Positions 1,711 through 58,544 are shown, counted from the stretch's first letter. The stretch: 64,000 nucleotides of DNA from Candidatus Moraniibacteriota bacterium (GCA_016699875.1 CP064989.1:712788-776787); one strand, 5' to 3'. Translations and numbers: made by a program. Notes: generated by a model not told the origin, from the letters alone.

Positions 1711-1740
1711 AGGCTTATTTTTTAGGAATAAACGTGTGGC

Positions 1741-10780: not shown

Positions 10781-11434
10781 ATGATGGATATAAAAAAACG
10801 GGCAAGAGAAATACTGAATCGATTGAAAAAGATATATCCGAAACCGGGACCGTTTGTCGAATGGTCAAGTCCGCTCGAATTGGTAGTGGGAACCGTGCTT
10901 TCGGCGCAGTGCACGGATGAACGAGTGAATCGCGTAACAAAGAATCTGTTCAAGAAATACAGGACGGCGAAGGACTATATGGATGCTGATCCGATAGAAT
11001 TGGAACAAGATATCTATCAAACCGGATTCTATAAATCAAAAGCGAAATATCTCCGGGCTATCGGAGCGATACTTGTCGAGAAATTTGGCGGAGAGGTGCC
11101 AGGTGACTTTACATCACTCCTTACCTTTCCTGGCGTTGCACGGAAGACGGCGCATATCGTGATGGCGAAAGCGTTTGGGAAATACACGGGCGTTGCTGTT
11201 GATACACATGTGATGCGTATGGCGCCCCGGCTCGGGCTGACAAAGCACTCTGAACAAGAGAAGATCGCGAAAGATCTCGAAGGCTTGTTTCCAACGAATG
11301 AGTATCTCCACGTCAATGAGTACTTTATTACGCACGGTCGCGCTATTTGTACTCCGAGAAGACCAAAATGCGGAGAGTGTGCATTGTTGGAGCTCTGTCC
11401 ATCTGGAAGGGAATCGATAGGCAATCTGCCATGA
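10781..11434 (+). CDS. nth: Endonuclease III (DNA glycosylase / AP lyase), 4Fe-4S cluster loop present
   Basis: HhH-GPD region (LLTFPGVARKTAHIVMAKAFG), catalytic Lys-containing helix, and a C-terminal C-x6-C-x2-C-x5-C motif (CTPRRPKCGECALLELC). The track ORF starts at 10727; the likely start is MMDIKK at 10781. Confidence 0.9.
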   Translation: MMDIKKRAREILNRLKKIYPKPGPFVEWSSPLELVVGTVLSAQCTDERVNRVTKNLFKKYRTAKDYMDADPIELEQDIYQTGFYKSKAKYLRAIGAILVEKFGGEVPGDFTSLLTFPGVARKTAHIVMAKAFGKYTGVAVDTHVMRMAPRLGLTKHSEQEKIAKDLEGLFPTNEYLHVNEYFITHGRAICTPRRPKCGECALLELCPSGRESIGNLP

Positions 11435-11546
11435 TCATGACAGAGGGGGTGAAGAAGAGGAAATTAAGCACAAGGCTGGAATCGGGAAAGAAGCAAGCTT
11501 TGTTTCGGACTAGTGCTCGCCCTCATTTCCTCTACTTACTCCCATT

Positions 11547-22670: not shown

Positions 22671-23021
22671 ATACAATTCATCCCCCTTCCACATTTCCGG
22701 ATTCTTTTCGATATATTTCACAATCAAGTTCCATTCTCGATCATTCCGAATAATGTGTTCGTAATAATTCCGTTGCCATATTGATTTTTCAAATCGCGGG
22801 AATTCTTTGGTTTTAACGTGTTGAATGTATTCATTTGCGGTCAACGATTTAAAGGCACCAATAATATTTCCAAGGGTTGTGCCGATCGGGATCGGTAGGG
22901 GCGACGGCTTGTCCTCGCCATGTTCCCGATTGTCTGTTTGCGAATAATGTAGATGGGACACCCACAAGGGGCGCCATGCAAAAGGGCGCCCACAAGGGGC
23001 GCCCCTACCATTCAGAAACAT
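22665..23021 (-). pseudogene. Truncated REP-associated tyrosine transposase (RAYT / IS200-like Y1 transposase) remnant
   Basis: The C-terminal 75 aa (GNIIGAFKSLTANEYIQHVK...SIWQRNYYEHIIRNDREWNLIVKYIEKNPEMW) match the FKS and WQRxYYDHIIR...NP motifs of the RAYT/IS200 TnpA C-terminus. A possible HuH (SHLHY) is present, but the N-terminal ~50 aa are missing. The ORF N-terminus is a translation of REP-like repeats. Confidence 0.6.
22957..23009. repeat. Two adjacent REP-like repeats (CCCACAAGGGGCGCC ... GGGCGCCCACAAGGGGCGCCCC, including a 10-bp perfect palindrome GGGGCGCCCC) upstream of the RAYT remnant
   Basis: Read directly from the sequence. Same core as the copies at 22595-22670. Confidence 0.55.
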
Positions 23022-23063
23022 GATACAATGTTTCTATGTTCTCTTTCTCTCCCGCTTTCTCCT

Positions 23064-24491
23064 ATGAAACTCTCCTGGACACGCGCCATTCAATGGGTTG
23101 GCATTCTTGCGGTGTTGGTTTTTGTTGTGGCTCTTCGATATGAGGCACCGTCAGAGGCGGGCATGCAAATGAATGCCTCTCCGGACTCACCCTTCTCCCA
23201 ATCCCTCCGCGGCTACTGGAAACTCGACGACGGCACTGGCACCAACGCCACGGACTCAAGTGGCAATGGGAACACTCTTGCCATGACTGGATCCCCAAGT
23301 TGGGTGACCGGACAAATTGGTCCCTCCGCCCTCGACTTCTCCGGAAGTGGACAGTATCTCTCCATCGCCTCTCCCTCAAGCGCTCTCGACTTTACCGATG
23401 GAGCGAGCTTTACATTGACCGGCTGGTTCAATAGAGACACATTTGCCAATGATCACACCATCCTCTCCACCAAGAGCGGACAGTCTACTGAAAGTGATGG
23501 CTACATCGCATATATTGACGATGCAACGGATCAGCTTATCATTCGCTTTGATGAAAATGGATCAACCGATGCAAGAACGTTTACATCCACATCCACCTTT
23601 ACGGCTACCGGTTGGCATAGCTTTGCTCTCTCTTGGAATGAAAGCGCTCCCGATGCCGTTCTCTATATCGATGGTAAACCCGATGGGTCAGGAAGCGGAA
23701 CCGTCTTTGCCAGTATGGGAGATCTTTCCAACTCAAATGCTTTCTACATTGGTGCTGAAACCGATGCTGGGAATCCTTTCGATGGCAAACTCGATGATAT
23801 CCGTATCTATGGTTATGCCCTCAGTGCTGAGCAGGTGAAGAAACTGTACAACACCACCGCTCCCACCCAACCCGTTGATACAAGCTTAGTAGGACACTGG
23901 ACCTTTGATGGGACGGATATACAGGGGACCACCGCAATTGATAGAAGCAGCTTTGGGAATAACGGGACGATAACGGGAGCAACGAAGACTATTGGGAAGT
24001 TGGGTCAGGCACTCAGTTTTAATGGGACGAGTGATTATGTGGATGTAGGAACAGCGCTAGATTGTAGCGGCACCAAAACAGTCAGTCTTTGGTTTAAAGA
24101 ACTTGGCAATGAAGATACGCTCTTTTTCTCATCGACAGGTGGAACGAGCGACTATATTTTAATTGAGTTCTATAATTCAGATAGGATAGCAGTCGAGGTG
24201 GAAGATACATATCCAAGTTCAAAAAGCAGGCAAGTGAGTGGATTTAATACGGATGAATGGTATCATCTCGTTGTAACCAAAACAGCAGGAGGTGTTACTG
24301 GTATTTATGTTAATGGTTTTGATGAAGCTGGATCTGGAGGTAATTTCTCACCGTTTGGAGGAACGAACAAAACATATATCGGCAGACATCCAAGCGGAGG
24401 ATATTTTGAAGGATCAATTGACGATGTACGCATCTACAATCGCACGCTTTCCACAACGGAAATCACAAATTTGTATAATTTGGGGAAATAG
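23064..24491 (+). CDS. Secreted protein with two tandem LamG-like (concanavalin A-like lectin/glucanase) domains
   Basis: LRGYWKLDDGTGTNATDSSGNGNTLAMTGSPSWVTGQIGPSALDFSGSGQYLS...LTGWFNRD...FDGKLDDIRIYGYALSAEQVKKLYN, then a second copy LVGHWTFDG...FEGSIDDVRIYNRTLSTTEITNLYN. The track ORF begins at 22953 inside the REP repeats; the TM/signal start MKLSWTRAIQWVGILAVLVFVV at 23064 is more likely. Confidence 0.8.
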   Translation: MKLSWTRAIQWVGILAVLVFVVALRYEAPSEAGMQMNASPDSPFSQSLRGYWKLDDGTGTNATDSSGNGNTLAMTGSPSWVTGQIGPSALDFSGSGQYLSIASPSSALDFTDGASFTLTGWFNRDTFANDHTILSTKSGQSTESDGYIAYIDDATDQLIIRFDENGSTDARTFTSTSTFTATGWHSFALSWNESAPDAVLYIDGKPDGSGSGTVFASMGDLSNSNAFYIGAETDAGNPFDGKLDDIRIYGYALSAEQVKKLYNTTAPTQPVDTSLVGHWTFDGTDIQGTTAIDRSSFGNNGTITGATKTIGKLGQALSFNGTSDYVDVGTALDCSGTKTVSLWFKELGNEDTLFFSSTGGTSDYILIEFYNSDRIAVEVEDTYPSSKSRQVSGFNTDEWYHLVVTKTAGGVTGIYVNGFDEAGSGGNFSPFGGTNKTYIGRHPSGGYFEGSIDDVRIYNRTLSTTEITNLYNLGK

Positions 24492-24508: not shown

Positions 24509-27500
24509 ATGAGGAGGAAAGTATTTTTGAGTTCAATGGGAGTTTTAATGAGTTTCTTCTTGGTGCAGGAAGCAACTGCATCGCCTTCGATTTCTTCTGT
24601 TTCTGGCACATGGAATCACAAGTCCACGATCACAGTGAGTGGTTTAGGATTTGGTACGAAGGCTACCGTGGCGCCGATAGTGTGGGATGATGCATCGGGG
24701 AGTAACATTTTGAATAACTGGAGTGGCGCATGGCCGACGTCAGCGGCGGGGTCGTCGCAAATGAATTATTATTTACCAATGCGCGGAGTCGCTCTACCTC
24801 ACAACAACATTACAAAATATATAGCAGGTTGTATAAGCGGTGGTGGTGCTGATACTGGCAATAATGCAGATTTATTTAAAACAATTTCAAATGTACAATT
24901 CCCGTCTTATATGTATGTTTCTTGGTATCATAGAGCTGATCCGGCATGGGTATTTACAGGAAGTGAACACAACTACAAATTGTTTGATTGGTCTATTGGA
25001 ACCGAGCCGATGGGTAGTGACAACTGGTATTTCGAATATAATCCGCCGCCTTTAAACAATACACCTACCGGTTCGGATCCATTCAATGATCCGAACTATC
25101 ATACCAATAACAATGGTGGTATGGGAATGTTCAGTACATGGGGTGATTATGCCTATAAACCAATGAATGGATGGGTCAAACTCGAACTTGAGATAAGATT
25201 CGACAGAACAGCATCAGGATATGTAAAAGCTTGGGAAAATGGGAAACAAGTTTTTAATAATAGTGGCGTAACAGATGCTACATCTGGATCGCAGAGAACG
25301 GTTACTGTGGGCGGATATACAATGCCGAGAAGTAGTAACCAATGGATGTATTTTGCTGACGTCTATATTGATACTGCCCGCCAGCGTATTGTCCTTGCTA
25401 ACAACCCCAATATCAACAACGCCACCATTAAAGAAGTCCAGATCCCGAGCGCATGGAACGATACGTCAATCAGCCTCTCTTCCAATCTTGGTAAGTTCAC
25501 GAGCGGTCAAACCGCATACCTCTTTGTCTATGACTCGACCGGCACACCAAATACAACTGGTTATCCGGTGACGATCGGCGGCGGAGGTGGTGGTGACACC
25601 ACTCCTCCCACTTCTCCCACCAACCTTGTCGCAAATGCCACCAGCCAATCAAGCATTACCGTCTCTTGGACTGCTGCTACTGACAACATCGGAGTAGCAG
25701 GCTACCAAGTGGAACATTGTTCTCCTTCTGGTTGCTCCACATTTACCCAAGTAGGAACTCCAACATCTTCTCCTTTTATTGATTCAGGATTAACAGCAAA
25801 TGCCTTCTACAACTACCACGTCCGTGCCGTCGATGCTGCCGGCAATACTTCAGGCTGGAGCAATGTTGTGGGAGCAACTACTCAAGCCGCTTCACAAACG
25901 CCCACCATCTCCCTCTCTGCAAACCCGACGAGTATCACCTCCGGACAATCCAGTACTCTTACTTGGAGTTCCACTAACGCCACTAGCTGTACGGCTTCCG
26001 GAAGTTGGTCTGGTACCAAAGCCACAAGCGGCACCCAGTCTGTTTCTCCCGCCACAACGAGTACCTACACCCTCACCTGTACCGGTACGGGAGGAGCGAC
26101 CAATCAGAGCGCGACGGTAACGGTGGGGAGTGGAGGAAGTAATGTTTCTATGAATGAGTGCTCAACAATGCAAAATGGTTGGATTTTCTGCAATGACTTC
26201 GATACCAATGTCACCACTGATACGCAACGAAGAGCACAGTGGGATGATTATGACGGCGCGACCGACGTCAACTTCCCACAGGACAATGGACCATCGCAGA
26301 ATTCCAGCAACCATGTTGCCCAATTCCTCATTCCACAGAATGCGTCTGCCGGTGCCGATCTTGTCAAAGTTTTTGGCAGTTCCTATCAGAAACTCTATCT
26401 GCGCTACTACACCAAATACGCTACTGGTTTTCCATTTACCATGGGGAATCATGGAGGAGGCTTAACCGCAGGTGATCGAGCACATCTCGCTACCTCTGGC
26501 TATCGACCTGGTGATCCAGCAACGCCAAGTGGTTCCGACGAATGGGCGGACTTTCGAGTGCAGTACAATAAGGGATCGAATCCGATTCCCTACGCTTACT
26601 CATACAATGTTGGCATGTATCAAGACTGTCCAAGCTCTGGAAGCTGCTTTGGAGATTCTTACCCGTGCGTCTATGACAGCGGCCAATCCTACTGTACAAA
26701 AGCTGTTGATCGACCAACAGCCACTATGCCGACTATTACAGCTGGTAACTGGCATTGTGTCGAGGAAACGGTTGATATGGGAACAGCGGGACAGTCAAAT
26801 GGAACATTTCAGCTTACATGGGATGGCGCCTATGCAGGCAATCTGGTCAATATGCATTTCCGAAACAATGCAAACAATTTGTTACACAATCTCTACTTAT
26901 CGCTCTACAGTGGTGATGCGACGCATGCTCTAGCTGATCAGCGACTCGACAATATCGTTGTCTCCACACAGCCCATTGGGTGTGGGAACACCTCCACCCC
27001 CGACACCACCCCTCCCACCAGTCCAACCAACCTCGCTGCCAATGCCACCAGTGAGTCCAGCATCACCGTCTCTTGGGACCCAGCAACCGACAACATTGGA
27101 GTCACTGGCTACCAAGTCGAACGCTGTCTTGGTCTCTCATGCTCCAACTTTACTCAAGTCGGAACTACCACAAGCTCTCCCCTTACAGACTCCAACCTGA
27201 CCGCTTCTACCGGCTACTCCTACCATGTAAGAGCTGTCGATGCCGCAGGGAACACCAGTGACTGGTCTAATGTCGTCGGTACAACGACTCAAGGTACACC
27301 CACCCCCACCTCCTGCTCCACCGTCACCCCCACCAACTTCACCACCTCAACCTACACCGGCTACGGTGCTCCCTATGACGTCTTTGTGAGTAACACTCCT
27401 CTTATCTCCACCACCTGTACCAGCAGCGATACCCACACGATAAACGCTACCCTCGGTATTACCGGAGACACTACCCGTATCGTCTACACCAAAGGCTACT

Positions 27501-27748
27501 ACTATGATCCCGGTATATCTGACTGGACCTCCTTCACCGGAACCTGTACCGGAGCCTTGAATGGAGACTGGTGCCAAGGAAGTGTCTCTGCCACTCTCAC
27601 CGATACCGATATCTCTACAGCAAGCGCTTCCGATCCCGCCTACCTGGTCGGTATGACCTGTAGCATACAGGGAGGTACGTGGAAGTGCGGATGCAGAGAC
27701 ACAACGTGTTCTACGTTCTACTGGCAGGTGCAGGGGGCGGGACTCTGA
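24509..27748 (+). CDS. Large secreted protein (1079 aa) built from two units, each a beta-jelly-roll domain (polysaccharide-lyase/glucanase-like, assignment uncertain) plus an FN3 domain, and a Cys/Thr-rich C-terminus
   Basis: Signal peptide. FN3 repeats TPPTSPTNLVANATSQSSITVSWTAATDNIGVAGYQVEHC...YHVRAVDAAGNTSGWSNV and TPPTSPTNLAANATSESSITVSWDPATDNIGVTGYQVERC...YHVRAVDAAGNTSDWSNV. Confidence 0.75.
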   Translation: MRRKVFLSSMGVLMSFFLVQEATASPSISSVSGTWNHKSTITVSGLGFGTKATVAPIVWDDASGSNILNNWSGAWPTSAAGSSQMNYYLPMRGVALPHNNITKYIAGCISGGGADTGNNADLFKTISNVQFPSYMYVSWYHRADPAWVFTGSEHNYKLFDWSIGTEPMGSDNWYFEYNPPPLNNTPTGSDPFNDPNYHTNNNGGMGMFSTWGDYAYKPMNGWVKLELEIRFDRTASGYVKAWENGKQVFNNSGVTDATSGSQRTVTVGGYTMPRSSNQWMYFADVYIDTARQRIVLANNPNINNATIKEVQIPSAWNDTSISLSSNLGKFTSGQTAYLFVYDSTGTPNTTGYPVTIGGGGGGDTTPPTSPTNLVANATSQSSITVSWTAATDNIGVAGYQVEHCSPSGCSTFTQVGTPTSSPFIDSGLTANAFYNYHVRAVDAAGNTSGWSNVVGATTQAASQTPTISLSANPTSITSGQSSTLTWSSTNATSCTASGSWSGTKATSGTQSVSPATTSTYTLTCTGTGGATNQSATVTVGSGGSNVSMNECSTMQNGWIFCNDFDTNVTTDTQRRAQWDDYDGATDVNFPQDNGPSQNSSNHVAQFLIPQNASAGADLVKVFGSSYQKLYLRYYTKYATGFPFTMGNHGGGLTAGDRAHLATSGYRPGDPATPSGSDEWADFRVQYNKGSNPIPYAYSYNVGMYQDCPSSGSCFGDSYPCVYDSGQSYCTKAVDRPTATMPTITAGNWHCVEETVDMGTAGQSNGTFQLTWDGAYAGNLVNMHFRNNANNLLHNLYLSLYSGDATHALADQRLDNIVVSTQPIGCGNTSTPDTTPPTSPTNLAANATSESSITVSWDPATDNIGVTGYQVERCLGLSCSNFTQVGTTTSSPLTDSNLTASTGYSYHVRAVDAAGNTSDWSNVVGTTTQGTPTPTSCSTVTPTNFTTSTYTGYGAPYDVFVSNTPLISTTCTSSDTHTINATLGITGDTTRIVYTKGYYYDPGISDWTSFTGTCTGALNGDWCQGSVSATLTDTDISTASASDPAYLVGMTCSIQGGTWKCGCRDTTCSTFYWQVQGAGL

Positions 27749-31238: not shown

Positions 31239-31519
31239 TTGGGTCATTGAGTACGTGGATCATTCGAGGTGATTTTGACACGAAGAAGCTGAAGAATAGC
31301 AACGGATCATTTGGTTCGAACGCCGAGAACGGAATCTGTTTTGCGTAGTGGAGAAAGGATTTTATCTCTCTTGACAGAGCTCGGACGAGCTTTGTTTTTT
31401 TATCAATTTTGTAGTACTATTATGACTAAGCACATGGGTGCATTTTCTTAATTCAGATGCTCTCGACTGAAGTGGCGAGGAGAACACGCTTTTGTTCTCC
31501 CGAAGCACTTCGATCCTGA

Positions 31520-34500
31520 ATGCATTTCTTCAATCAAAACAAAAAGAGGAGCCTCTTCACTTTGATTCGTTCGGTGTTGCAGGCAGAAGAGCATTTCATT
31601 GTACTTCTTTCGGTAGGAATACTGGCGGGAGTTTGTCTCTGGGGAATGGCTTCTCAGTCTGTTTTTGCGCAGGCAATTCCCGGCACGGCACAGGTGCTGG
31701 GGAGTGAGAAGCAAATCAGTGCTTCGGCAATACTTCTGGATGGCAAAGGATCGCCAGTGCCAAATGGCGAGTATGAAGTGCGGTTTAGTATCTACCGTGC
31801 CGACCGGACAACGAGCGATCCGTATCCATCTGACACGGATGCCCCGCTTCGTGTGTGGGAGGAAACGCAAACAGCGACCGTGAAGAATGGCATCATGAAT
31901 GCCTATCTCGGTGTCACGACGCCTTTCCCTGGAAATCTTACTTTCGAAGGCGGGGAATACTTTCTTGGGGTTCGCGTGGGAACGGATTCGGAAATGATTC
32001 CGCGGAAGAAGTTCGGCACTTTCACCAATGCGATTAATTCGCAGTTTTTGCGTGGTCGGACATTTGGCACAAATGCGGGAGATATTGCGACCTATGGCAC
32101 CAATGGGAAATTTGATATCAAGCAGCTTCCGACGGGAACGAGCGGGAATAAGTTGCTTCTTGCAAACAATAAGGATTTTACGGGAGTGCTCGATGATGTA
32201 TCGGGTCTCTTGGATGATGTCTCAACGCTTCAGAACGACAGTCATGCGCAGAATACCGATACGGGGACAGACTCCCTGACATTCAATGTAGGATCCGATA
32301 CGGCAGTCGGCTCATCAAACTTTGGTTTTACTGTTTCGAGCGCTGGCACGAAACCGGAGCTCCGATATAACAGCTCTTTGAGTCAGTGGGAATTCTCCGA
32401 TGACGGTTCGGTCTTTACGGCACTCAATGCTGGTTCTGGAGGTGGCGTGAATGGATCGGGCACGAGCGGACAGATTGCCTACTGGACAGGGACAAGCACG
32501 CTTGGATCGGAAGCACATCTCTCAGCTTCGCGTGGTGGAACGGGTATCGACACATCAAGCTCGACGGGTGTGCCAGTTGTTTCGTCCGGCACATGGAGCA
32601 TTGCCTCGGCACTTGGCGTGTCGCAGGGCGGCACAGGACTTTCCTCAACACCAGCGAATGGGGAATTGCTTATCGGGAATGGATCCGGGTTTGCACTTGC
32701 GACGCTTTCGACTGGAAGTGGTCTTGCGCTTTCGAATGGGGCAGGATCAATTAACTTGGCACTTGACGTGACGACGACAGGCACAACTGCTACAACGCAG
32801 TCGAATTCTGGACTTGAGCTGGTTGCATCGGGACTTCGGCTTCTTGGCGGATGCTCCGATGGGGAAATACTTAAATGGGACAGTGGAAGCTCGGTGTGGG
32901 CATGTTCGAGTGATCTTGGTGGTGCAACGGCGATTATCAATGTGAATGAAGGGTCGACAGCCTATACTGGCATTGATACGCTTACATTTGACGCGGATGA
33001 CTTCAGTATTTCCCAACTCGGAAGCGAAGCAACAGTGACGATTGATTATGCAAATTCCGGTATCGCTCGGCTTGGTCAGGATGAAACCGTGACGGGGGCT
33101 TGGGACTTTTCCGGAAATACTACTTTTGGCACGATTGTTGGTGGTGTCTGGAATGGTACAGCGATCGGTGCGACCTATGGTGGCACTGGCATTAATACCT
33201 CCGGCTCAACTGGCGTACCGTATATAACGGGTGGCACATGGAGCGTTGATGCGACGGCGCTCTCGGTTGCACATGGAGGAACGGGTGCGACGAGTCTTGC
33301 AAACTTGATTGCCCTCACCACCGACACCACCGGCAACTACGTCCAATCCATTACCAATGGCAACGGTATCACTGGTGGAAACGGAGGATCTGAAGGAGCA
33401 ACTCTCACCCTCTCCCTCAACCTCCTCACCTCCGCAGACGGCACCGGCTCCACCTCCTCCAACTCCGGCCTCGAATTCCAAGGCACCAGCTCCAATGAAC
33501 TCTCTCTCCTCCAAGGATGTGCTAACAACGAAGTCCTTTCTTGGAACGACTCTACAAATGTCTGGCAATGTGCCAGCGTCTCCGGAGTAGGCGGTGTTAC
33601 CGGAAGCGCCACCAGCGGACAGGTTGCCTATTGGACCGGAACCTCAACGCTCTCCGGAGAAGATCAGGTAACTGTTGCCCAAGGGGGAACGGGAATCGGA
33701 AGCTATACCACCGGAGACATTCTCTATGCGTCAGGAGCCACAACTCTTGCCAAACTTGCTGATGTTGCAACCGGAAATGTTCTTATCTCCGGAGGGGTGG
33801 GAGTGCAACCGCAGTGGGGGAAGGTGGCGCTCGGAAGTGCTGTGAGTGGGACTCTTCCGGTAGCGAATGGAGGAACGGGGGCGACTACGCTCACGGCCAA
33901 CGGAGTCATTTATGGAAACGGTACTGGCGCCATTCAAGCGACTTCTGCCGGAACCGACGCTCAAATACTCATAGCCAATGCTTCCGGTGTGCCTACGTTC
34001 GTTACTCTGGGCGGCGACGCTACGGTCAACAATTCCGGATCTCTCACCATTGCTGCCAACAGTGTTGCCCTCACCACCGACACCACCGGCAACTACGTCC
34101 AATCCATTACCAATGGCAACGGTATCACTGGTGGAAACGGAGGATCTGAAGGAGCAACTCTCACCCTCTCCCTCAACCTCCTCACCTCCGCAGACGGCAC
34201 CGGCTCCACCTCCTCCAACTCCGGCCTCGAATTCCAAGGCACCAGCTCCAATGAACTCTCTCTCCTCCAAGGATGTGCTAACAACGAAGTCCTTTCTTGG
34301 AACGACTCTACAAATGTCTGGCAATGTGCCAGCGTCTCCGGAGTAGGCGGTGTTACCGGAAGCGCCACCAGCGGACAGGTTGCCTATTGGACCGGAACCT
34401 CAACGCTCTCCGGAGAAGATCAGGTAACTGTTGCCCAAGGGGGAACGGGAATCGGAAGCTACACCACCGGAGACATTCTCTATGCGTCAGGAGCCACGAC

Positions 34501-37500
34501 TCTCGCTAAACTTGCTGATGTCGCAACCGGAAATGTTCTTATCTCCGGAGGGGTGGGAGTGCAACCGCAGTGGGGGAAGGTGGCTTTGGGCACATATACC
34601 TCAGGGAATTACGTGGCGAATGCGAGTACGTCGACACTTACAGGGTTGACTGGCGGGTCCGGCGGATCGGTGGGCGCGTCGCTCTCGCTCGCTTTTGACT
34701 ACACGACTCCGCTTACGGGTGACCCGGCGCTTTCGGCAAACAATGCTATCTTTGGAACCAACGGACTCATCTTCGAAGGGGCGACCGCGAATACATTTGA
34801 GACCTATGTCACTTTGACTGACCCAACGGCAGATCGAACGCTGACGCTTCCCAATGTGACTGGAACGATTGCAACGCTGAATGGCGGTCAAATATTTACT
34901 TCCGCCACATGGAACGGCACGGCGATCGGCGCGACCTATGGCGGTACAGGCATCAATACGATTGGTTCAACCGGTGTGCCATATATAAATGGCGGGGCAT
35001 GGAGCGTCGACTCAGCGGCGCTTGCCGTGGCGCATGGTGGGACGGGACTTACGACTTTTGGCGGGACAAATACGCTTCTTTATACGACAACTGCTAATAC
35101 GCTCGCGTCTATTTCGGCTGCGGCAAATAGTATTCTGGTGACGAACGGGTCGAATGTTCCTTCGCTTTCGACCGATATCCCGACGGCGGTTACTATTGGT
35201 TCCGCCTATATCTACCGTGTGGGCGGTACTGATGTGTCGCTCGCCGACGGCGGCACCGGCTCCTCTCTCTCCGACCCCAATGCCGACCGCATCCTCTTCT
35301 GGGACGACTCCGCCGGAGCTGTCACCTGGCTTTCTCCTTCTTCCAACCTCTCTATTAGTACAACCACTCTTGATCTCGCCTCTTCCATAAACATCAATAC
35401 GCTCCAACTCGGCACCGACGGCACCGACGGTTCTTTCATCATCTACTCCGAACAAGGGGCAACTGACTATACCACTACCTTCCAACCGGGAGCACAGTCA
35501 CAAAACATTACCTATACGCTTCCGAATGATGATGGAACAAGCGGACAGGTGCTTATTACGGATGGGACGGGAGCACTCTCGTGGTCGAGTGTTTCCGGTG
35601 CGGGCGGTGTGACAGGGACAAGCACGAGCGGGTATGCAGTCTATTGGGATAGTACGAACTCGATTGCTGGCGAGCCATACCTCTCCTTAACTCGCGGTGG
35701 AACAGGAACAACGCTTTCCGATCCGGGAGCCGATCGCATTCTCTTCTGGGACGATTCGGTCGGTGCGATTGATTGGCTTTCTGCCGGATCAAATCTTTCT
35801 ATTAGTGGAACGACCATTAACCTCGCGTCGAGCATACAACTCGGATCGGACGGATCGGACGGAGTGCTTACCATTTATTCCGAGCAGGGTGCAACCGATT
35901 ATACCTCGACTTTCCAGCCGGGAACGCAGACGCAGAATATCACTTATACGCTGCCGGCGGATGATGGTGCTGCGAGTCAGGTACTCGTCACTGATGGGAC
36001 CGGGAACCTTTCGTGGCAATCGGTGTCTGGCGTTGGCGCGCTCGATGGATCAGGTTTAACTGATGCTGTTGCCTACTGGGTGGATAGCAACACGCTTACC
36101 TATGAAACAGCGCTCGCCCTTTCCCGTGGCGGCACCGGCTCCTCTCTCTCCGACCCCAATGCTGACCGCATCCTCTTCTGGGACGACTCTGCTGGAGCGG
36201 TCACTTGGCTTTCTCCTTCTTCCAACCTCTCTATTAGTACAACCACTCTTGACCTCGCTTCTTCTGTAAACGTCAATACTCTCCAACTCGGTACCGACGG
36301 CACCGACGGTTCTTTCATCATCTACTCCGAACAAGGGGCAACTGACTATACCACTACCTTCCAACCGGGAGCACAGTCACAGAACATCACCTATACGCTT
36401 CCGAATGATGATGGAACAAGCGGACAGGTGCTCATCACGGATGGATCAGGCATACTCTCCTGGACATCCGCTGGCTCTGGCGGTATCGGTGACATTACCG
36501 CGATCGGAGATGTAGCGAGTGGGGATGCCTTTACGGCAAGTGGTACCCAGGGAACCAGTCTCTACTTCTATGATGTGGATGGAAGGGGACAACTCACGAT
36601 TGCCAATCTCACGGCTGCTCGGATGTATACGCTTCCAGATGCCACTGGAACTATTATCACTACGGGCAATCTCACCGGTATTACCGCAACAGGCACGATT
36701 GCGAGTGGGACGTGGAATGGGACAGCGATCGGTGCAGCGTATGGCGGAACCGGACTTGATACATCCGGTGGTTCGACGACTGGAGTGCCTACTATTAGTA
36801 GTGGGGTGTGGAGTGTCTCGAGTTCGCTTGATGTGACGCTTGGTGGTACCGGCACGAGCGCACTTTCCTCCGGCGGTCTTCTCTATGGTAATGGCACTTC
36901 GGCAATCGGCGCTTTGAGCGTGATGACGAATGGCCAACTCCTTATCGGCGATGGCACGGGCGTGCCGACACTTGCGACGCTTTCGGAAGGGGATGGGGTT
37001 ACGGTGACAAATGGCGCCGGTTCCATCACCCTCTCCCTCAACCTCCTCACCTCCGCAGACGGTACCGGCTCCACCTCCTCCAACTCCGGCCTCGAATTCC
37101 AAGGCACCAGCTCCAATGAACTCTCTCTCCTCCAAGGATGTGCTAACAACGAAGTCCTTTCTTGGAACGACTCTACAAATGTCTGGCAATGTGCCAGCGT
37201 CTCCGGAGTAGGCGGTGTTACCGGAAGCGCCACCAGCGGACAGGTTGCCTATTGGACCGGAACCTCAACGCTCTCCGGAGAAGATCAGGTAACTGTTGCC
37301 CAAGGGGAACGGGAATCGGAAGCTATACCACCGGAGACATTCTCTATGCGTCAGGAGCCACAACTCTTGCCAAACTTGCTGATGTCGCAACCGGAAATGT
37401 TCTTATCTCCGGAGGGGTGGGAGTGGCACCGAGCTGGGGGAAGGTGGCATTGGGTACGCATACCTCGGGGAATTATGTTGCAAATGCGAGCACGTCGACC

Positions 37501-40500
37501 TTGACCGGTCTTACGGGCGGATCCGGCGGATCGGCGGGCGCGTCGCTCTCGCTCGCTTTTGACTACACGACTCCGCTTACGGGTGATCCGGCGCTTTCGG
37601 CAAATAATACAATCTTTGGAACAAACGGCCTTATATTTGAAGGGGCGACCGCGAATACATTTGAGACCTATGTCACTTTGACTGACCCAACGGCAGATCG
37701 AACACTGACACTTCCCAATGTGACCGGAACGATTGCAACGCTGAATGGCGGTCAAACATTTACTTCCGCCACATGGAACGGCACGGCGATCGGTGCGACC
37801 TATGGCGGTACAGGTATCAATACGATTGGTTCAACCGGTGTGCCATATATAAATGGCGGGGCGTGGAGCGTCGACTCAACAGCGCTTGCCGTGGCACATG
37901 GTGGCACGGGACTTACGACTTTTGGCGGGACAAATACGCTTCTTTATACGACAACTGCTAATACGCTCGCGTCTATTTCAGCTGCGGCAAATAGTATTCT
38001 GGTGACGAACGGGTCGAATGTTCCTTCGCTTGCAACTGATATCCCGACGGCGGTTACTATTGGTTCTGCCTATATCTACCGTGTGGGCGGTACTGATATA
38101 TCGCTCGCCGACGGCGGCACCGGCTCCTCTCTCTCCGACCCCAATGCTGACCGCATCCTTTTCTGGGACGACTCTGCCGGAGCGGTCACCTGGCTTTCTC
38201 CTTCTTCCAACCTCTCTATTAGTACAACCACTCTTGACCTCGCTTCTTCCGTAAACATCAATACTCTCCAACTCGGCACCGACGGCTCCGACGGCTCCTT
38301 CATCATCTACTCCGAACAAGGGGCAACTGACTATACCACTACCTTCCAACCGGGAGCACAGTCACAAAACATTACCTATACGCTTCCGAATGATGATGGA
38401 ACAAGCGGACAGGTGCTTATTACGGATGGGACGGGAGCACTCTCGTGGTCGAGTGTTTCCGGTGCGGGCGGTGTGACAGGGACAAGCACGAGCGGGTATG
38501 CAGTCTATTGGGATAGTACGAACTCGATTGCTGGCGAGCCATACCTCTCCTTAACTCGCGGTGGAACAGGAACAACGCTCTCCGACCCCAATGCTGACCG
38601 CATCCTTTTCTGGGACGACTCTGCCGGAGCGGTCACCTGGCTTTCTCCTTCTTCCAACCTCTCTATTAGTACAACCACTCTTGACCTCGCTTCTTCCGTA
38701 AACATCAATACTCTCCAACTCGGCACCGACGGCTCCGACGGCTCCTTCATCATCTACTCCGAACAAGGGGCAACTGACTATACCACTACCTTCCAACCGG
38801 GAGCACAGTCACAAAACATTACCTATACGCTTCCGAATGATGATGGAACAAGCGGACAGGTGCTTATTACGGATGGGACGGGAGCACTCTCGTGGTCGAG
38901 TGTTTCCGGTGCGGGCGGTGTGACAGGGACAAGCACGAGCGGGTATGCAGTCTATTGGGATAGTACGAACTCGATTGCTGGCGAGCCATACCTCTCCTTA
39001 ACTCGCGGTGGAACAGGAACAACGCTCTCCGACCCCAATGCTGACCGCATCCTTTTCTGGGACGACTCTGCCGGAGCGGTCACCTGGCTTTCTCCTTCTT
39101 CCAACTCTCTCTATTAGTACAACCACTCTTGACCTCGCTTCTTCCGTAAACATCAATACTCTCCAACTCGGCACCGACGGCTCCGACGGCTCCTTCATCA
39201 TCTACTCCGAACAAGGGGCAACTGACTATACCACTACCTTCCAACCGGGAGCACAGTCACAAAACATTACCTATACGCTTCCGAATGATGATGGAACAAG
39301 CGGACAGGTGCTTATTACGGATGGGACGGGCATACTCTCCTGGACATCCGCTGGCTCTGGCGGCATCGGTGACATTACCGCGATCGGAGATGTAGCGAGT
39401 GGGGATGCCTTTACGGCAAGTGGTACCCAGGGAACCAGTCTCTACTTCTATGATGCGGACGGCAGAGGACAACTCACGATTGCCAATCTTTCTGCGGCAC
39501 GGACGTATACGTTGCCGGATGTGAGTGGCACAATTGCAACACTGAATGGCGGACAGACCTTTACGAGTGCTACGTGGAACGGATCGACAGTCGGAGTGGC
39601 GTATGGCGGAACAGGCGTTACTACCTTTGGCGGGACGAATACGCTCCTCTATACGACTTCCGCCAATACACTGACATCACTCGCTACGGCAAACAGCTCG
39701 ATTCTTATTACGAATGGCTCCGGTGTTCCATCCATTGCAACCGATATCCCGACAGCAGTTACTATCGGCTCTTCCTATATCTATCGTGCGGGCGGGACTG
39801 ATGTGTCGGTTGCGGATGGTGGTACGGGCTTGAGTTCCTATACTGCTGGCGATCTTCTCTATGCTTCCAATACAACAACGCTCGCCGGGCTCGCCGATAT
39901 TGCCACCGGAAACGTGCTCCTCTCGGGTGGCGTTAGTTCGTCGCCATTGTGGGGAAAGGTAGTGCTTGGGACGCATACGACCGGGAACTATGTCGCATCG
40001 GCAACGGCGAGTGGGGGACTCACGATGACCGGGACGGCTGGAGGAAGTCTCGGCATTCTTCTTCAGCCTTCGACGGACGCGCTCTCCTCGACCACGAGCT
40101 CCGGATCAGGCATGGAACTTCTCTCGACTGGACTCTCACTTTTACAGGGTTGTTCAAATGAACAAGTGCTTTCTTGGAACGAAGCATCCGATGTGTGGGA
40201 ATGTTCGGACAAAACTGCTGGCACGAGCGACTGGACAGCAGTGATTGGGACGCCGAATTTCTCCTATCTCACTGATACGAGTGCACATTTGGTGGTAGGT
40301 GGATCGACGGAAGCGGCTGGTGCTTTTGATTTTGATGTGACTACCACAAAGCTCAATATTGGCGCGGCGGCAAGTTTTGACACATTCATTATTGCTCCGG
40401 TTACGAAGGGAACAACGTCCCATTCTGGGACATTGACTACTGCCGATCTTACAACAGCAAGTCGCACATGGACCCTCCCCGACGAAACTGGCACCATCTG

Positions 40501-43500
40501 TACCACTGGCAGCGTCTGCTCCGGCTACCAAGCTGCCGGCTCCTACCTCACCACTTCTACTTCCTTTGCCGGCGGAGACATTGCTTCCGGAACCTACAAT
40601 ACTCTCTCTCTTGCTTCCAGTATCACTCGCGATACCGAATGGGATACCGCTGCCGAGATCAATGCGGCTACAACAGACACCGACTTCGCTTACGCCGCCC
40701 TCTCCAACCTCGCCTCCGTCGCCATCAACACGAGCCTCATCTCCGATACGGACAATACCGATGATCTCGGTTCTGCTGCTATTGGCTGGAAAGATATTTA
40801 CTCCCGCACCCTCAAGCTTGATGGATCTACCTCTGGCACGATTACTCTCCAAGCAGCTGCTACTGCAGGTACCAATACTATCACCCTTCCGGCAAGCACG
40901 GGGACAGTAGCGCTTACGAGCGATCTTCACTCCGCTGTCACATTCGGAGTCTCATCTTACGACTATCTCACCCTTTCCGGACAAGAAATCACTCTTGGAC
41001 AAATTGATCTCACAACCGATGTGACAGGAACGCTGCCGGTGGGGAATGGGGGGACGGGCGTAGCGACCTTCGGCGGGACGAATACACTTCTCTATACTTC
41101 TTCTGCTAATACGCTTGCATCGATTGCGACTGCAAATTCTTCATTCTTGACCACGAACGGTTCTGGTGTGCCGAGCTTTGCCGCGCTTTCTGCAGACACA
41201 TTTACTCAGTATGCACTTCTTGCCGGAAGAAGCGGAGGGCAGACCATTATTGGCGGAACAGGTGCGGGCGATGACCTCACATTCCAGACAACCTCCAATG
41301 GTACCAAAGGCTCATATATCTTCTCCGAACTCGGAAGTGGACTGGTGCTTTCAACATCGGGAACGCTTTCAGTGGTTACAAATACGCTTCATACACAGAA
41401 TACGGACACAGGAACAGATGGCACGACATTCACGGTTGGGGATGGCACTACGGTATTTACGGTTGATACCAGCGCGACCAACGATACTATTATTATCGAG
41501 CAGGGAACATACGATTCTATACTCTCTTTCACTCAACCGGGTGCTGCTGACCAAACCTATACGTTCGCAACAGGAGGAACAGTTTGTACCACTGGCAGCG
41601 TCTGCTCCGGCTACCAAGCCGCCGGCTCCTACCTCACCACTTCTACTTCCTTTGCCGGCGGAGATATCGCTTCCGGAACCTACAATACTCTCTCTCTTGC
41701 TTCCAGTATCACTCGCGATACCGAATGGGATACCGCTGCCGAGATCAATGCGGCTACAACAGACACCGACTTCGCTTACGCCGCCCTCTCTAATCTCTCC
41801 TCCGTCGCCATCAACACGAGCCTTATCTCCGATACGGACAATACCGATGATCTCGGTTCTGCTGCTATTGGCTGGAAAGATATTTACTCCCGCACCCTCA
41901 AGCTTGATGGATCTACCTCTGGCACGATTACTCTCCAAGCAGCCGCTACTGCAGGTACCAACACCATCACCCTTCCGGCAAGTACAGGGACAGTAGCGCT
42001 CACCAGTGATCTTCACTCTGCGGTTACCCTCTCTGGATCCTACGACTACATCACCCTCTCTGGACAAGACATCGTCCGAGGACAAATCGACCTTACGACC
42101 GATGTGACAGGGACACTGCCGGTGGGGAATGGGGGGACGGGCGCGATTACATTTACCACGAATGGTATTCTCTATGGCAATGGTACGAGTGCTATTGCGG
42201 TAACAGCAGCTGGAACAGATACGCAAATACTTTCCAATTCATCGGGCACGCCGGGATGGATCAATCAGTCCTCTATTAGTGCGGGCACACTCGACGGTAT
42301 CGATTCGCTCTCATTCCTCCGATCCGACACGAGTGACTCTTTCACGAGCGGCACGCTTTCATTTTCCGACGGAACACTGCTCGATCTCTCATCAATTGCT
42401 CATGATGACTCGGCTCCACAAGGTTTGAAACTCCCACAGAACACAACGCTCACAAATATCGTTGGCGGTGGGGCAGGGTATATCGCGTATGATACGACGG
42501 CGAATACGGTAAAGATGTTTAATGGCACCTCTTGGCTGAGCATTGGTGGTGCTTCAACTACACTTCAAGATGCGTACAGTAATGATGTTGATGGATCTGA
42601 CGCAACGATTTCTCTCACAACCGCCGATGATTCACTTATCTTTACCAATCCATCTTCAAGCGGGACGGACTCCGCGTTTTTGCTCCAGCTTAATCAGGCT
42701 AATACGACCGCTGGTGTTGTTGCGCTTGACATTATTCAGTCATCAAACAATGCGAATGCTGTCAACATCACTGCCAACTCAATCGATACGGAGACAGGAC
42801 TCTCTGTTACGGCGAATGCGCTTACAACTGGAACGGGTTTAAGCGTTACACATACTACAAGTGTCATTGCTAATGGTGGATCGCTTTTGCGTCTTTCTTC
42901 AAGTTCGGTTGATACCAGTACGACAACGGGGACACTTCTCGATCTTTCTTCCACCGGATCAACTGCCGGAACGATTGCGCTTATTACCAACAACACGGCT
43001 TCATTCACAGGAATTACTCAAAGCATCGTAGCGAACGGTATTTCGTCGGGTACCGGTCTTGCTATTGCCTCTTCCTCTGCCGCTATGACCGGTTCTCTCC
43101 AGTCCATCACGCTTTCCGGAAGCAATGCTTCAAACACAGGCAATCTTCTCTATCTCAATAGTTCCGGTGCGAACAGTGTTGCGAAAGCTTTGAACGTTGC
43201 TATTGCCTCGACCGGGAACTTCTCGACAACCGGAGGTGTGAACTTTACCTTTAGTGGAGCACACACGGGGACAGGATTTGCCGTAAGCGATGCAACGGCA
43301 ACCGGGACAGCAGTCTCTATCACGGCAAACAGTATCTCGACCGGCACGGGTGTGAGTATTGCTTCGACGTCGACCGCTGGCGGTGCGAGTGGATCTTCCT
43401 ATCTCCTCAATCTCTCCCGAAGCGGTGCGAATTCCAATTCGAGCCATACAGCATACGGCATATATTCCTCAGTGACGAATACCGGTACCTCGGCAGTCAA

Positions 43501-45298
43501 TTACGCGGGATATTTCAGTTCGACCACTTCCGGAACAACCTCAACAGCTGTTGGTGGCTACTTCAGTGCTAGTGGTGGAACGACAGCAAATTACGGACTC
43601 CTTGTTGCGGCAGGAAGTGTTGGTATTGGTACGACAGCGCCGGTCTCCGGTCTCGAGCTCTATTCTTCCGCCGCAAGCGACGACATTTTTACACTGACAT
43701 CCGCTACAGCCACGAATGATCCACTCCTCAAATTCCGTACTGGTACAACACCAGCTGTTCAATTCTCGCTCGGTGTCGACACGAGTGATTCCAATACGTT
43801 CAAGATTGACTCCAATGATGGACTTTCTACCTCGCCAGACTTCAAGATCGACTCGACCGGACAAACTACGATTGCGAATGCCGTCTTGGGTGCACAGAGT
43901 TTTCCGGAGGATGCGGGTATCGTGAGCTGGGTGGATATGAGCGTGACCAGCTCTTCGGCTGATAATACGGTTGAGAGCTATTCGGCGCAGATTGATAGTA
44001 ATCCGATTCTCACAATTTATGCGCTTTCTGATGGAGCAGGGAGTATCGATAACAAAGGTGTCGGCATTGGTACGACAGCGCCGTCTTATATGCTTGATGT
44101 GTATGACGATACGGCATCAGACTATGCGGCACGGTTCTTTAATGATGGAAACAATGCAAATCGATATGGCATTGTGATTCAGGCGGGAGCTGATGATGCA
44201 AGTGGTACCACTTATTATTTAAATGCTCTTGATGGTGATGGCGGGCAAGTTGGATATATTGCCAATACATCTGGAACTTTCGCACTTACTGATGTTTCTG
44301 ATGTTCGAACAAAGACAAATATAGAGAGTACCACTTTTGAAGGGCTTGATATAATTAATGCTCTTCGAGTTGTTGATTTTAATCGTTTGAGCAATCCTGA
44401 TGGACCAGAAATTACAGGATTTATTGCGCAAGAGGTATTATCGGTATATCCGAAAGCAGTAACTATCAGTTCGAGCGGATACTTTGGTATTGCAAAGAGC
44501 GAATTTATTCCAGTTATTGTAAAAGCACTCCAAGAAGAAGACTCTCGTGTTAATAGTATTGAAACAAAGGTGGACACCCTATTTCAAGGGAATGCGAGCA
44601 AATTGACGAGTCTTGTGCTTGAAACAAATAGTCAAGCAACAACACTTTCTGGACTGAAAATATCAGTAGATGAGCAGTTCGCGCTTGCGGCAGCACAGCT
44701 CAATGCGATGAGTGCGCGCCTCTCAACACTCGAGACGGCGAGCACTGACTACGAAGCGCGCCTCGCAGCAAATGAGACGGCGATTACCGGATTTGAATCG
44801 CGTCTCGCGACACTTGAAGAAACAAATGATGCGCTTCTCGATTTCTACAATGCATTCGAGCTTGGGAATGTGCTTGCCAAGGATACGGAAGGCAATCTGG
44901 ATCTTTTGAACGGACGGCTCCGCGCAAAGACAGTACGGACCGGTGCACTCGAAATCGAGATTGTAGACAGTGCCAATCCCACCATTGGCACGCTCGAAAT
45001 TCTACCAGTCGCCAAAGACGAAGACGGCGACGGAATCGATGATTGGTCGAAGCTCGCTCTGGACGATCCGGAAGTGGTAGCGCGCGATGGAAAGACGGCA
45101 AAGGTGTTGACGGGCGCAGTTACAAATCTTTCTCGCGTCTTCGTGAACTTTGTAGATAATCCCGGCTCCACTTCATGGCGCGAGCGTTCTCGCGGTGGGG
45201 ATGGGGAATATGACGGCTTCCTGATTCATCTGGCTGAGCCGGTTTCGGCGCCGGTCCGGGCGGACTGGTTCCTGGTGGAGGAGCGTGATGTTGAATAA
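31520..45298 (+). CDS. Giant (~4590 codons if repaired) phage tail-fibre-like repetitive surface protein. It appears as three ORFs (31520..37504, 37162..39117, 39008..45298) because of two frameshifts inside repeat copies. Either a pseudogene, phase-variable, or an assembly artefact.
   Basis: N-terminal signal anchor (FIVLLSVGILAGVCLWGMASQSVFAQA). Many GGTG-containing ~159-aa repeats (LSRGGTGSSLSDPNADRILFWDDSAGAVTWLSPSSNLSISTTTLDLASS...). Near-identical DNA repeats throughout. A C-terminal intramolecular-chaperone (S74-like) domain. Protein sequence on each side of both frame breaks continues the same repeat unit. Confidence 0.8.
33309..34590 (+). repeat. Two near-identical direct copies (~520 bp each, period 756 bp) of repeat family A inside the giant gene
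   Basis: 33309-33830 versus 34065-34590 (ccctcaccaccgacaccaccggcaactacgtccaatcc ... ggggtgggagtgcaaccgcagtgggggaaggtggc). They are almost identical at the DNA level. Confidence 0.85.
37027..38580 (+). repeat. ~1.55-kb segmental duplicate of 34065..35710 (repeat families A+C+B in the same order), carrying the G5-to-G4 frameshift
   Basis: 37027-37445 matches 34175-34590; 37445-38105 matches 34590-35255; 38105-38580 matches 35255-35710. All are near-identical DNA. Confidence 0.8.
38105..39300 (+). repeat. Tandem array of ~2.5 near-identical copies of the 477-bp (159-aa) B repeat
   Basis: The unit starting ctctccgaccccaatgctgaccgcatcc recurs at 38105, 38582 and 39059. Further copies lie at 35255 and 36125. 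The second frameshift lies in the third tandem copy. Confidence 0.85.
40499..42145 (+). repeat. Two copies of repeat family D (~390 bp near-identical, ~560 bp homologous; period 1086 bp)
   Basis: 40499-40890 versus 41585-41975 (tgtaccactggcagcgtctgctccggctaccaagc ... ccggcaag). Divergent but homologous to ~41060 and ~42145. Confidence 0.8.
44290..44580 (+). other. Intramolecular chaperone auto-processing domain (peptidase S74 / chaperone of endosialidase-like) near the C-terminus of the giant protein
   Basis: DVSDVRTKTNIESTTFEGLDIINALRVVDFNRLSNPDGPEITGFIAQEVLSVYPKAVTISSSGYFGIAKSEFIPVIVKALQEE. It matches the S-D-x-R-x-K ... GFIAQEV ... P-x-AV ... GY ... L-IP-L-EA-K pattern of phage tail-fibre/tailspike C-terminal chaperone domains. 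A further ~240-aa coiled-coil-rich tail follows. Confidence 0.7.
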
Positions 45299-53811: not shown

Positions 53812-54918
53812 ATGAATCAAGAGGTTTTTGTGAAAATAACCCGATGGTTAGCGTATGCGGCGATTGGGGTATTGTTGGTTGCAATATTCATTGTCTTTTT
53901 CGGGAAGGGAATCAACCGCGGAACGTCGTACCAACAGAATGGGCTGGGAGTTTCCGGCGAGGCATCGTCTTGGCGGGGGATGAGCAATATGATGGGGGGA
54001 GATGCTGATGAATCTGGGGTTACGACAGAATCGTCGGTTCCGGTTGCGGCAGATGCGGCTGGATCGGGGTATGCCGGGAAAATGATGGCAGCGGGAAACC
54101 CCGACTTCTCGACGGTCGCGCCGGATATGATGGAGGGGAATAGTGCTGTAGCTGAAACGGAAAAACGCGTGGTGCGGAACGGAGATCTATCAATTCGCGT
54201 CGAAGACGCCGAATGGTCAGCGGACGAAATCGATCGCATCGCGACGCGGCTCGGCGGGTTTACGGCATCTCGGTCGATCAGTAGCAGCATGCCGGGGTAT
54301 CCGATGCCGATGGTGCAGGATGAATCAATGGGATACGGTATTTAAAAACAGTCGTCGAACGCTCCGCAAACCGGAGTGGTGACAATCAAAATTCCTTCTG
54401 ACAAGTTTGCCGAAGCAAATGCGGCGATTCGTAGCATCGCGAGTGTTGTATTGAATGAATCGTCGTCGGCGAGCGATGTGACAGCACAGTTTGCCGATCT
54501 TGAGGCACGTATCAAGAATAAGTATGCCGAGGAAGAAGCGTTTACCAAGATTCTTAATACGACATCGGGGAAGGTGGCGGATATTTTGCAGGTGACGCGC
54601 GAGCTTTCACGGGTTCGCAGTGAGATCGAACAGCTCGAAACACAGAAAAAGTATATGGAGTCGCAGACCGACATGGCGTCGATCTCGGTTTCTCTGAGTG
54701 AAGATGTGAAGGTGGGCACGACGACAAATTCCTGGCGGCCATGGCAAACCGTGAAGTCGGCTGTGAATGCTCTGATCTCCCAATGTCGAAATTTCATCGA
54801 CGGCGCGATCTATTTCGTGGTCTCGGTGGTTCCGGTGTTTCTGCTGTACCTTTTGGGAGTGTACGTGGTATACAAAGCTGGGAAAGGAATATATCGGAGA
54901 TTGTATCCAAGAGTTTAG
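53812..54918 (+). CDS. DUF4349-family membrane-anchored protein interrupted by an in-frame TAA (54343-54345). The track shows two same-frame ORFs, 53812..54345 and 54376..54918.
   Basis: N-terminal TM (LAYAAIGVLLVAIFIVFF). The DUF4349 core begins KRVVRNGDLSIRVEDAEWSADEIDRIATRLGGF before the stop and continues VTIKIPSDKFAEA...SSSASDVTAQFADLEARIKNK...LSRVRSEIEQLETQKKYMESQTDMASISVSL after it. A C-terminal TM follows. Both parts are in the same frame. Confidence 0.6.
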
Positions 54919-54957: not shown

Positions 54958-55428
54958 GTGTTCAAGATGCCAAGTTCGTTCTCCGTTTATTTGCGGCGAG
55001 GCAATGCCTTGTTCGTGTTGTTGTTCTTACTGGCAGACAAGAATATAGGGCTTCTCAAGGATGCCTATGTGCAAGGAGATGCGCACATATTCATTCGCCA
55101 ATGTAGATCTTTCAGATGTCCAATTGTGGATCCATGGGCTGCAAACATCCTTGCAGTCGCTTTGCTTGTCGGGTTGGACGGAATATCCGATGAGAACGAT
55201 GAGGAGGCAATTTCTTTATTGCGCAAAGTAACATCTATCGGGGGTTGTCCATCGGCATGGCATTCTCTCGGAGTGTGTTACTTGCACGGTATAGGGATGT
55301 CTCCGGATAGAAACGAAGCAACGCGGTGTTTCTTGGAGGGGGCAAAACGAGGATGCCTTCTTTGCCGTAGTAACTTTCACGATATCCCACTCCCGCATAA
55401 TTCAGGGAAGGTGATATCTCAACTGTAG
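54958..55428 (+). CDS. Sel1-like repeat (TPR-like) protein
   Basis: [33 protein letters not shown] fits the Sel1 repeat consensus. N-terminal hydrophobic segment. Confidence 0.5.
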
Positions 55429-55526
55429 TGAAAGGAGCTGTGTCAGTTTTGGCCAGCTCCTCATTTATTATCTTGAAAAACCCCCTTCTTCGGGCTAGGA
55501 TGGAGCTACTTGTTAAACTGTGGCCT

Positions 55527-58500: not shown

Positions 58501-58544
58501 CCGTCTTTGTCCAAGACCGCCTGGTGAATTTCGTGGTGGGTTGA
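55527..58544 (+). CDS. leuS: Leucyl-tRNA synthetase carrying (i) a 24-aa insertion in the editing domain encoded by a repeat element and (ii) an embedded Nudix hydrolase domain
   Basis: HIGH-type HTGH, KMSKS (VKMSKSKGN), the LeuRS zinc knuckle ([12 protein letters not shown]...CERCGG), editing-domain markers ([19 protein letters not shown] ... [22 protein letters not shown]) and the C-terminal [11 protein letters not shown] domain. The track ORF starts at 55428; [21 protein letters not shown] at 55527 is the typical LeuRS start. Confidence 0.95.
56395..56467 (+). repeat. ~72-bp copy of the hairpin repeat element inserted in-frame in the leuS editing domain
   Basis: GTCATTCCCGCGAAGGCGGGAATCCAGG...CTGGATCCCCGGGTCAAGCCCGAGGATGACAG. 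Its ends are homologous to the atp-operon element at 50090-50218, including compensatory stem changes. It is translated as [25 protein letters not shown]. Confidence 0.55.
56755..57235 (+). other. Nudix hydrolase domain embedded in LeuRS, between the editing domain and the return to the catalytic core
   Basis: [51 protein letters not shown] contains a complete Nudix box (G-x5-E-x7-R-E-U-x-E-E-x-G-U). E. coli LeuRS has ~25 aa at this position versus ~165 aa here. Confidence 0.7.

Follow-up and report, generated by a model that had tools for sequence, protein, structure and literature searches.

What is encoded between positions 31,520 and 45,298 of a Patescibacteria chromosome, where three overlapping open reading frames (ORFs) end in a domain common among phage fibres, and does the product belong to a virus or to the cell? 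The locus lies in a stretch of 64,000 nucleotides from Candidatus Moraniibacteriota bacterium (CP064989.1:712788-776787), called the window below, with positions counted from its first letter. To our knowledge, the ways in which ultrasmall candidate phyla radiation (CPR) bacteria recognize and hold their hosts are largely obscure, type IV pili being the only well-studied adhesion device. The answer proposed here, and judged rather probable, is a single gene for a very long, Sec-exported, homotrimeric surface fibre of Moranbacterales, built from phage-tail-fibre modules and related to Bdellovibrio's mosaic adhesive trimer (MAT) fibres. Its source, CP064989, is a circular chromosome of 1,088,644 bp from activated sludge, listed as the metagenome-assembled genome (MAG) Fred_18-Q3-R57-64_MAXAC.421_sub_cln and classified as Patescibacteria; Paceibacteria_A; Moranbacterales; UBA1568 (Singleton et al. 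2021). AtpD of this genome is 90-96% identical to proteins of Candidatus Moraniibacteriota, and the bacterium is tiny and probably host-dependent.

The three ORFs (31520..37504 in frame 2, 37162..39117 in frame 1 and 39008..45298 again in frame 2, all on the plus strand) are one gene of 13.8 kb, interrupted by two 1-nt indels. Both breaks are located by near-identical sister repeats within the gene. At break 1 (37304..37307, plus strand), a run of five G in both sister copies is shortened to four (GGGGG to GGGG), giving a -1 shift. At break 2 (39106..39106, plus strand), an extra T with respect to four sister copies converts AACCTCTCT into AACTCTCTCT, a +1 shift by which the original frame is regained. 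With one G added and one T removed, the whole fibre gene (31520..45298, plus strand) becomes an ORF of 13,779 nt and 4592 aa with no internal stop, as foreseen in the initial annotation, which had joined the three ORFs into one protein of ~4590 residues. Over the 472 codons between the breaks that align with a sister copy, codon position 3 of the repaired frame takes 77 of the 119 substitutions, and changed codons are synonymous in 64 cases versus non-synonymous in 28. This bias and the synonymous excess indicate that purifying selection acted on the repaired frame until a very recent date. An alternative TTG start at 31562, preceded by GAGGAG, is the start of the public protein QQS15441.1 (IPK84_03665; 1980 aa, on CP064989), to which ORF1 is identical from its residue 15 onwards. 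A terminator-like hairpin with a T run (31373-31396) separates the fn3-like gene upstream from the fibre gene, and suggests that the latter has its own promoter.

The C-terminal domain is a member of the Peptidase_S74 / intramolecular chaperone family. Its core (aa 4260-4315; 44297..44464, plus strand) matches PF13884 over all profile positions (58/58, 1-58) with 44.4 bits (curated cut-off 22; E 2e-11), and the catalytic dyad stands in the motif S4260-D-V-R-T-K4265, with the Ser4260 codon at 44297-44299 and the Lys4265 codon at 44312-44314. The Ser/Lys dyad is kept in nearly all relatives. Searching the PDB with a profile of the C-terminal family retrieved a phage tail fibre (8jov, 5e-9), S16 gp37 (6f45) and MyRF (7dc3), as well as several Bdellovibrio ‘cell wall surface anchor’ structures and bd2133 (8ond, 7.6e-5; 8oml, 9.6e-5; 8ol4, 2e-3). 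The predicted structure concurs: when an AlphaFold model of the C-terminus (predicted local distance difference test, pLDDT, 81.7) was submitted to Foldseek, the intramolecular chaperone auto-processing (ICA) domain of MyRF was matched with E 1e-4, probability 1.0 and a TM score of 0.63 on the target (7dc3), the chaperone of endoNF with probability 0.99 (3gw6), and 291 viral S74 models with E <= 0.001. Thus, the two expectations voiced at the outset, a true S74 domain and a conserved Ser/Lys dyad, were both confirmed. In the PDB, only the profile search succeeded; the C-terminus, the pre-S74 region and the N-terminal domain yielded no real matches when each was submitted as a single sequence. 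Pfam detects S74 alone, and the NCBIfam and PADLOC libraries provided nothing useful.

The protein continues well past this core. After Ser4260 there are 332 aa, beyond the ~130-155 aa that are typical, if not strictly defining, of the distance from Ser to C-terminus in S74 proteins. The 277 aa following the Pfam core comprise a 120-residue helix, a linker and a beta-sandwich. The single helix (aa 4326-4445; 44495..44854, plus strand) has a heptad periodicity equalled by only 7 of 2000 shuffles and is predicted to form a trimeric coiled-coil stalk. The terminal beta-sandwich (aa ~4479-4589; 44954..45286, plus strand) is predicted with pLDDT >90, in a fold resembling the C-terminal domains of phage tailspike depolymerases. 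The coiled-coil tail of ~240 aa noticed earlier is thus a helix of 120 residues, then a linker and a tailspike-like beta-sandwich. The module consisting of S74, helix and beta-sandwich is conserved as a whole (38-57% identity), and the tail is conserved both in CPR relatives and in those labelled Bdellovibrionales.

Upstream of S74 lies a Ser/Thr/Gly/Ala-rich beta region (aa ~3560-4259; 42197..44296, plus strand) that would become the distal tip of the fibre after the predicted cleavage. It contains two VGIGTTAP...L motifs, at aa 4034 and 4181, that match the capping-loop consensus of MAT fibres. The preceding shaft extends over about 3200 aa (aa ~330-3560; 32510..42196, plus strand) and is made of repeats, with 25 GGTG modules and five Cys pairs of 17-residue spacing; the GGTG repeats of the initial annotation are thus present, ‘dozens’ being a generous count. 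Nested recent duplications of 447, 756, 879, 1086 and 2864 nt, 90-98% identical, run through it, and the segment of aa 345-432 matches the tail-fibre family phrog_31660. Targeting of these repeats by a diversity-generating retroelement was considered and rejected, the substitution spectrum between copies having no adenine bias.

At the other end of the protein, an N-terminal domain (aa ~55-330; 31682..32509, plus strand) presumably forms the cell-proximal end. Many related large proteins begin with this conserved domain, with best matches at residues ~10-345 of proteins of 2000-5600 aa. It is preceded by a signal peptide or membrane anchor (31520..31675, plus strand), recognized from the sequence and a Kyte-Doolittle scan. 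The only hydrophobic segment of the whole protein spans aa 26-44 and is followed by A-Q-A at aa 50-52. The signal anchor initially described is therefore a genuine hydrophobic N-terminus, which may nevertheless be a cleavable signal peptide and not an anchor.

Such an architecture has a precedent in cells. The predator B. bacteriovorus possesses 21 MAT fibres, in each of which a signal peptide and a conserved N-terminal domain accompany a trimeric fibre (Caulton et al. 2024, PMC10769870). Of these, 13 end in an S74 domain with the SDxxxK motif; Bd3182 cleaves itself at S782, a reaction blocked by the S782A mutation; and the fibres sit on the surface of the predator and are involved in handling prey (PMC10769870). 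The present protein is the giant CPR counterpart of these MAT fibres and not a wholly new system, so that a cellular S74 fibre is less novel than the initial annotation implied, cleavage having been demonstrated experimentally in the known family (PMC10769870). Both are cellular tail-fibre-like proteins in which an export signal precedes a conserved N-terminal domain, a long mosaic shaft, a beta-helix with V-G-x-x-x-x-P-x-x-x-L capping loops and a C-terminal S74 with SDxxxK, and both belong to organisms living, in the CPR case probably, on other cells. Both families also carry S74 and non-S74 endings on a common scaffold, and the pre-S74 region described here is homologous, by profile, to MAT crystal structures. 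The differences concern lineage, size and composition. The CPR protein is ~4-5 times longer (4592 aa versus ~900-1000 aa for Bd3182 and Bd2133), its shaft consists of GGTG and Cys-pair modules and has been duplicated internally in very recent times, and it continues for 332 aa past the catalytic Ser, versus 140 in Bd3182, because of the 120-aa helix and the tailspike-like beta-sandwich.

Other known systems are more distant. The K1F endosialidase (3GW6) and T5 pb1 (4UW8) share the S74 fold, the Ser-Lys dyad and its position at the C-terminus of a trimeric beta-structure, but they are phage proteins without export signals, encoded among virion genes, and release a domain of ~133-153 aa. MyRF (7DC3), whose ICA domain gave the best structural match for the S74 core, is likewise a case of S74 reused by cells; its biology is unrelated, this eukaryotic transcription factor being bound to the membrane until cleavage sets its N-terminal part free. 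Finally, the C-terminal beta-sandwiches of tailspike depolymerases (9K4A, 7W1C, 4RU4, 7EEA) have a similar fold at low identity (5-19%), but they directly follow an enzymatic beta-helix, whereas the beta-sandwich found here comes after S74 and a coiled coil.

By analogy with these systems, the following pathway can be proposed. The unfolded chain would be exported by Sec, N-terminus first. The C-terminal module (S74, coiled coil and beta-sandwich) would then align three chains in register and nucleate the triple beta-structure, whose folding would start at the C-terminus and proceed to the N-terminus. Once this is achieved, the Ser-Lys dyad would cut the chain after Ser4260, freeing a chaperone fragment of 332 aa and uncovering the conserved beta-helical tip. 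The N-terminal domain or an anchor would keep the fibre on the cell, with the shaft projecting the tip towards a host or partner cell, so that the fibre would act in host attachment. Scaling from Bd2133, in which 370 residues span 142-150 A (PMC10769870), gives a rough extrapolated fibre length of ~150-200 nm.

Three alternatives challenge this reading at different points. The ORFs are called individually, as three separate genes would be, but such an arrangement is scarcely credible: ORF2 and ORF3 lack export signals, both open with out-of-frame junk and acquire similarity to the sister repeats exactly at the indels, and intact homologues of ~4.2 thousand residues, with matching ends and architecture, exist in one ORF. 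A tail fibre of a prophage, a tailocin or another phage-derived particle would fit the frequency of S74 among phage fibres and the tail-fibre match in the PHROG collection. It is very improbable, since the protein has an N-terminal export signal and no phage structural gene (capsid, portal, tail, terminase or integrase) was found within ~30 kb on either side. Instead, the neighbours are AcrB/HlyD, ArgRS, RecQ, a LamG protein, a PL14/fn3 protein, ParB, a mannose-1-phosphate guanylyltransferase (GDP-mannose pyrophosphorylase, ManC-like), the F1Fo ATP synthase operon, LeuRS and a histidine kinase. This housekeeping neighbourhood in a circular Moranbacterales CPR genome agrees with the cellular, non-prophage context claimed from the start. 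Moreover, in the best 80 viral contigs, matches break off near query residue 194, short of the tail in every case. The third alternative accepts a cellular fibre and disputes its processing: S74 would release nothing in this family, and the coiled coil and beta-sandwich would stay on as a distal ligand-binding tip. Conservation of the tail as a unit speaks for it, as do the tail modules occurring without S74 in three proteins (P0010, P0012 and P0013), a tail 90% identical behind a different S74 subtype in contig L052, and the greater length past the Ser in CPR relatives than in those from Bacteroidota (200-375 versus 113-171 aa). Yet the Ser/Lys dyad is kept here and in nearly all relatives, all S74 domains tested so far cleave, the cellular one included (PMC10769870), and the C-terminal beta-sandwiches of tailspikes also aid trimerisation, so that a retained tail seems unlikely. 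The proposed trimeric, self-cleaving surface fibre is preferred, although several points weigh against it. Trimerisation, self-cleavage, surface display and host attachment we infer from likeness to characterised proteins; the conserved N-terminal domain is analogous, and only possibly homologous, to the ~130-aa beta-rich one of MAT fibres; and the tip directly upstream of S74 is the most conserved part among CPR lineages (60-73% identity), which is unexpected, as a variable receptor-binding tip would be anticipated. Further contrary points concern the frame breaks.

Residual assembly errors are somewhat favoured as the origin of these breaks over a very recent null allele. CP064989 is a CANU assembly of Nanopore reads, to which polishing by Racon, by medaka and with Illumina reads was applied (Singleton et al. 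2021). Both indels occur in a homopolymer or CT-rich run inside repeats that are 90-98% identical, and polishing by short reads is weakest at precisely these places because of the near-identical sequences around them. In addition, the two indels cancel each other, and the repaired frame is stop-free and without decay, its codon-position-3 bias recording selection until very recently. A real and recent pseudogene or null allele nevertheless keeps an appreciable, if smaller, probability. Translation would then stop 66 codons past break 1, giving a product of 1994 aa without the trimerising S74 module, and hence no fibre from this strain. The public record does hold ORF1 as a protein of its own. 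Across 12 kb of conserved neighbouring genes (the atp operon and LeuRS), no frameshift was found; the assembly is thus not generally indel-ridden, which leaves room for real breaks. An in-frame TAA (54343-54345) interrupts a nearby gene of the DUF4349 family (53812-54918), and a natural null allele exists for a homologous fibre of 4205 aa, with a GAA to TAA difference between contigs L053 (2929-2931) and L054. Finally, the closer relative L003 (AtpD 96% identical) has no S74 fibre at its atp-operon locus, from which the locus appears dispensable or variable; the sister genome CP064994 (L001) encodes an S74 protein of 1416 aa upstream of the corresponding operon. Phase variation was also considered and seems unlikely, given the shortness of the G5 run and the nature of break 2, where no unit slip is seen. 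A metagenome scan for the exact pattern across break 2 gave 0 matches, and thus no independent assembly of the strain was found.

Two of these loci deserve additional description. In the DUF4349 gene, relative L003 reads through the position of the stop (GYGASTRSS versus GYGI*KQSS here), which may be a nonsense mutation or a base error. Contigs L053 and L054 come from the Joint Genome Institute (JGI) and from two samples, and are 99.96% identical over 14.8 kb; one has an intact S74 fibre of 4205 aa, while in the other it is split into 478 and 3703 aa, the GAA to TAA change being one of four clustered substitutions.

Relatives of the fibre are numerous. A scan of species-representative genomes yielded 48 loci with ORFs from 400 to >4000 aa, mostly in CPR (Saccharibacteria, Moraniibacteriota, Paceibacterota and Nomurabacteria), with some on contigs labelled Bdellovibrionales, Gammaproteobacteria or Bacteroidota; the lengths past the catalytic Ser compared above derive from this set. 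A HMMER search with aa 1-1200 reached 9994 representative clusters, 563 of them at E<=1e-30, and many of the matches are proteins of 4-7 thousand residues. Modules are combined in various ways. The N-terminal domain is shared together with a C-terminal S74 by P0259 (4205 aa), P0290 (4231 aa) and P0252 (3186 aa), but occurs without S74 in P0244 and P0245. The subtype that precedes the tail in L052 (Logan SRR17907852) reads CSSDERLKKNI, in a gene that has a frame shift as well. Together with the S74-less tail proteins, these combinations show that the family is mosaic. Four contigs labelled ‘uncultured Bdellovibrionales’ (L005, L007, L025 and L026) contain the full C-terminal module, up to 52% identical, and shaft modules up to 69% identical to those of the window protein, due either to sharing across lineages or to mis-binning. 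On L026, the context is cellular, the fibre gene being followed by those for a 2012-aa FG-GAP protein, DsbB and an M23 peptidase.

S74 fibres of cells have been described before, and NCBI already gives the CPR proteins a generic name: those carrying the module in MAGs of Moraniibacteriota and Patescibacteria are called ‘tail fiber domain-containing protein, partial’. In full-text literature searches, S74 or tail-fibre-like proteins of Patescibacteria were nowhere described. In this context, it is tempting to propose a broader reading, held only tentatively and as a whole, according to which CPR/Patescibacteria would possess a very large, undescribed repertoire of MAT-like surface fibres derived from phage tail fibres, many of 2-7 thousand residues. 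These fibres would be the main determinants of the host cell to which an episymbiont attaches. Their chaperone module would have been extended by a coiled coil and a tailspike-like beta-sandwich so as to register three very long chains outside the cell, and CPR lineages, Bdellovibrio-like predators and phages would exchange modules. Null alleles would be frequent as the outcome of an arms race, fought with hosts or with fibre-using phages. As a lead to CPR host recognition, the family is of moderate interest. A fibre family abundant in Saccharibacteria, Paceibacteria and Moranbacteria would provide concrete proteins to consider as determinants of host range; it has a parallel in the fibres by which Bdellovibrio recognizes prey, and some members occur in genetically tractable Saccharibacteria. 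The extended chaperone tail, for its part, offers a testable idea on how very long trimeric fibres are assembled outside the cell.

A few features of the surroundings remain to be mentioned. No tRNA or Rfam match was obtained in the window. Other large and probably secreted proteins are encoded near the fibre gene, at 11547-16139 (minus strand), 22953-24491 and 24509-27748; they comprise a protein of 1530 aa with only a weak Ig-like match, a double LamG protein and a polysaccharide-lyase-14/fn3 protein. In CP064994, too, the S74 fibre has a LamG protein next to it. In LeuRS (55428-58544), a NUDIX domain (aa 460-576) is inserted beside the editing domain, an insertion also present in L003. In this same relative, an Avd/23S_rRNA_IVP-type gene (11414-11806) is located between atpD and atpC and may be an accessory gene of a diversity-generating retroelement.

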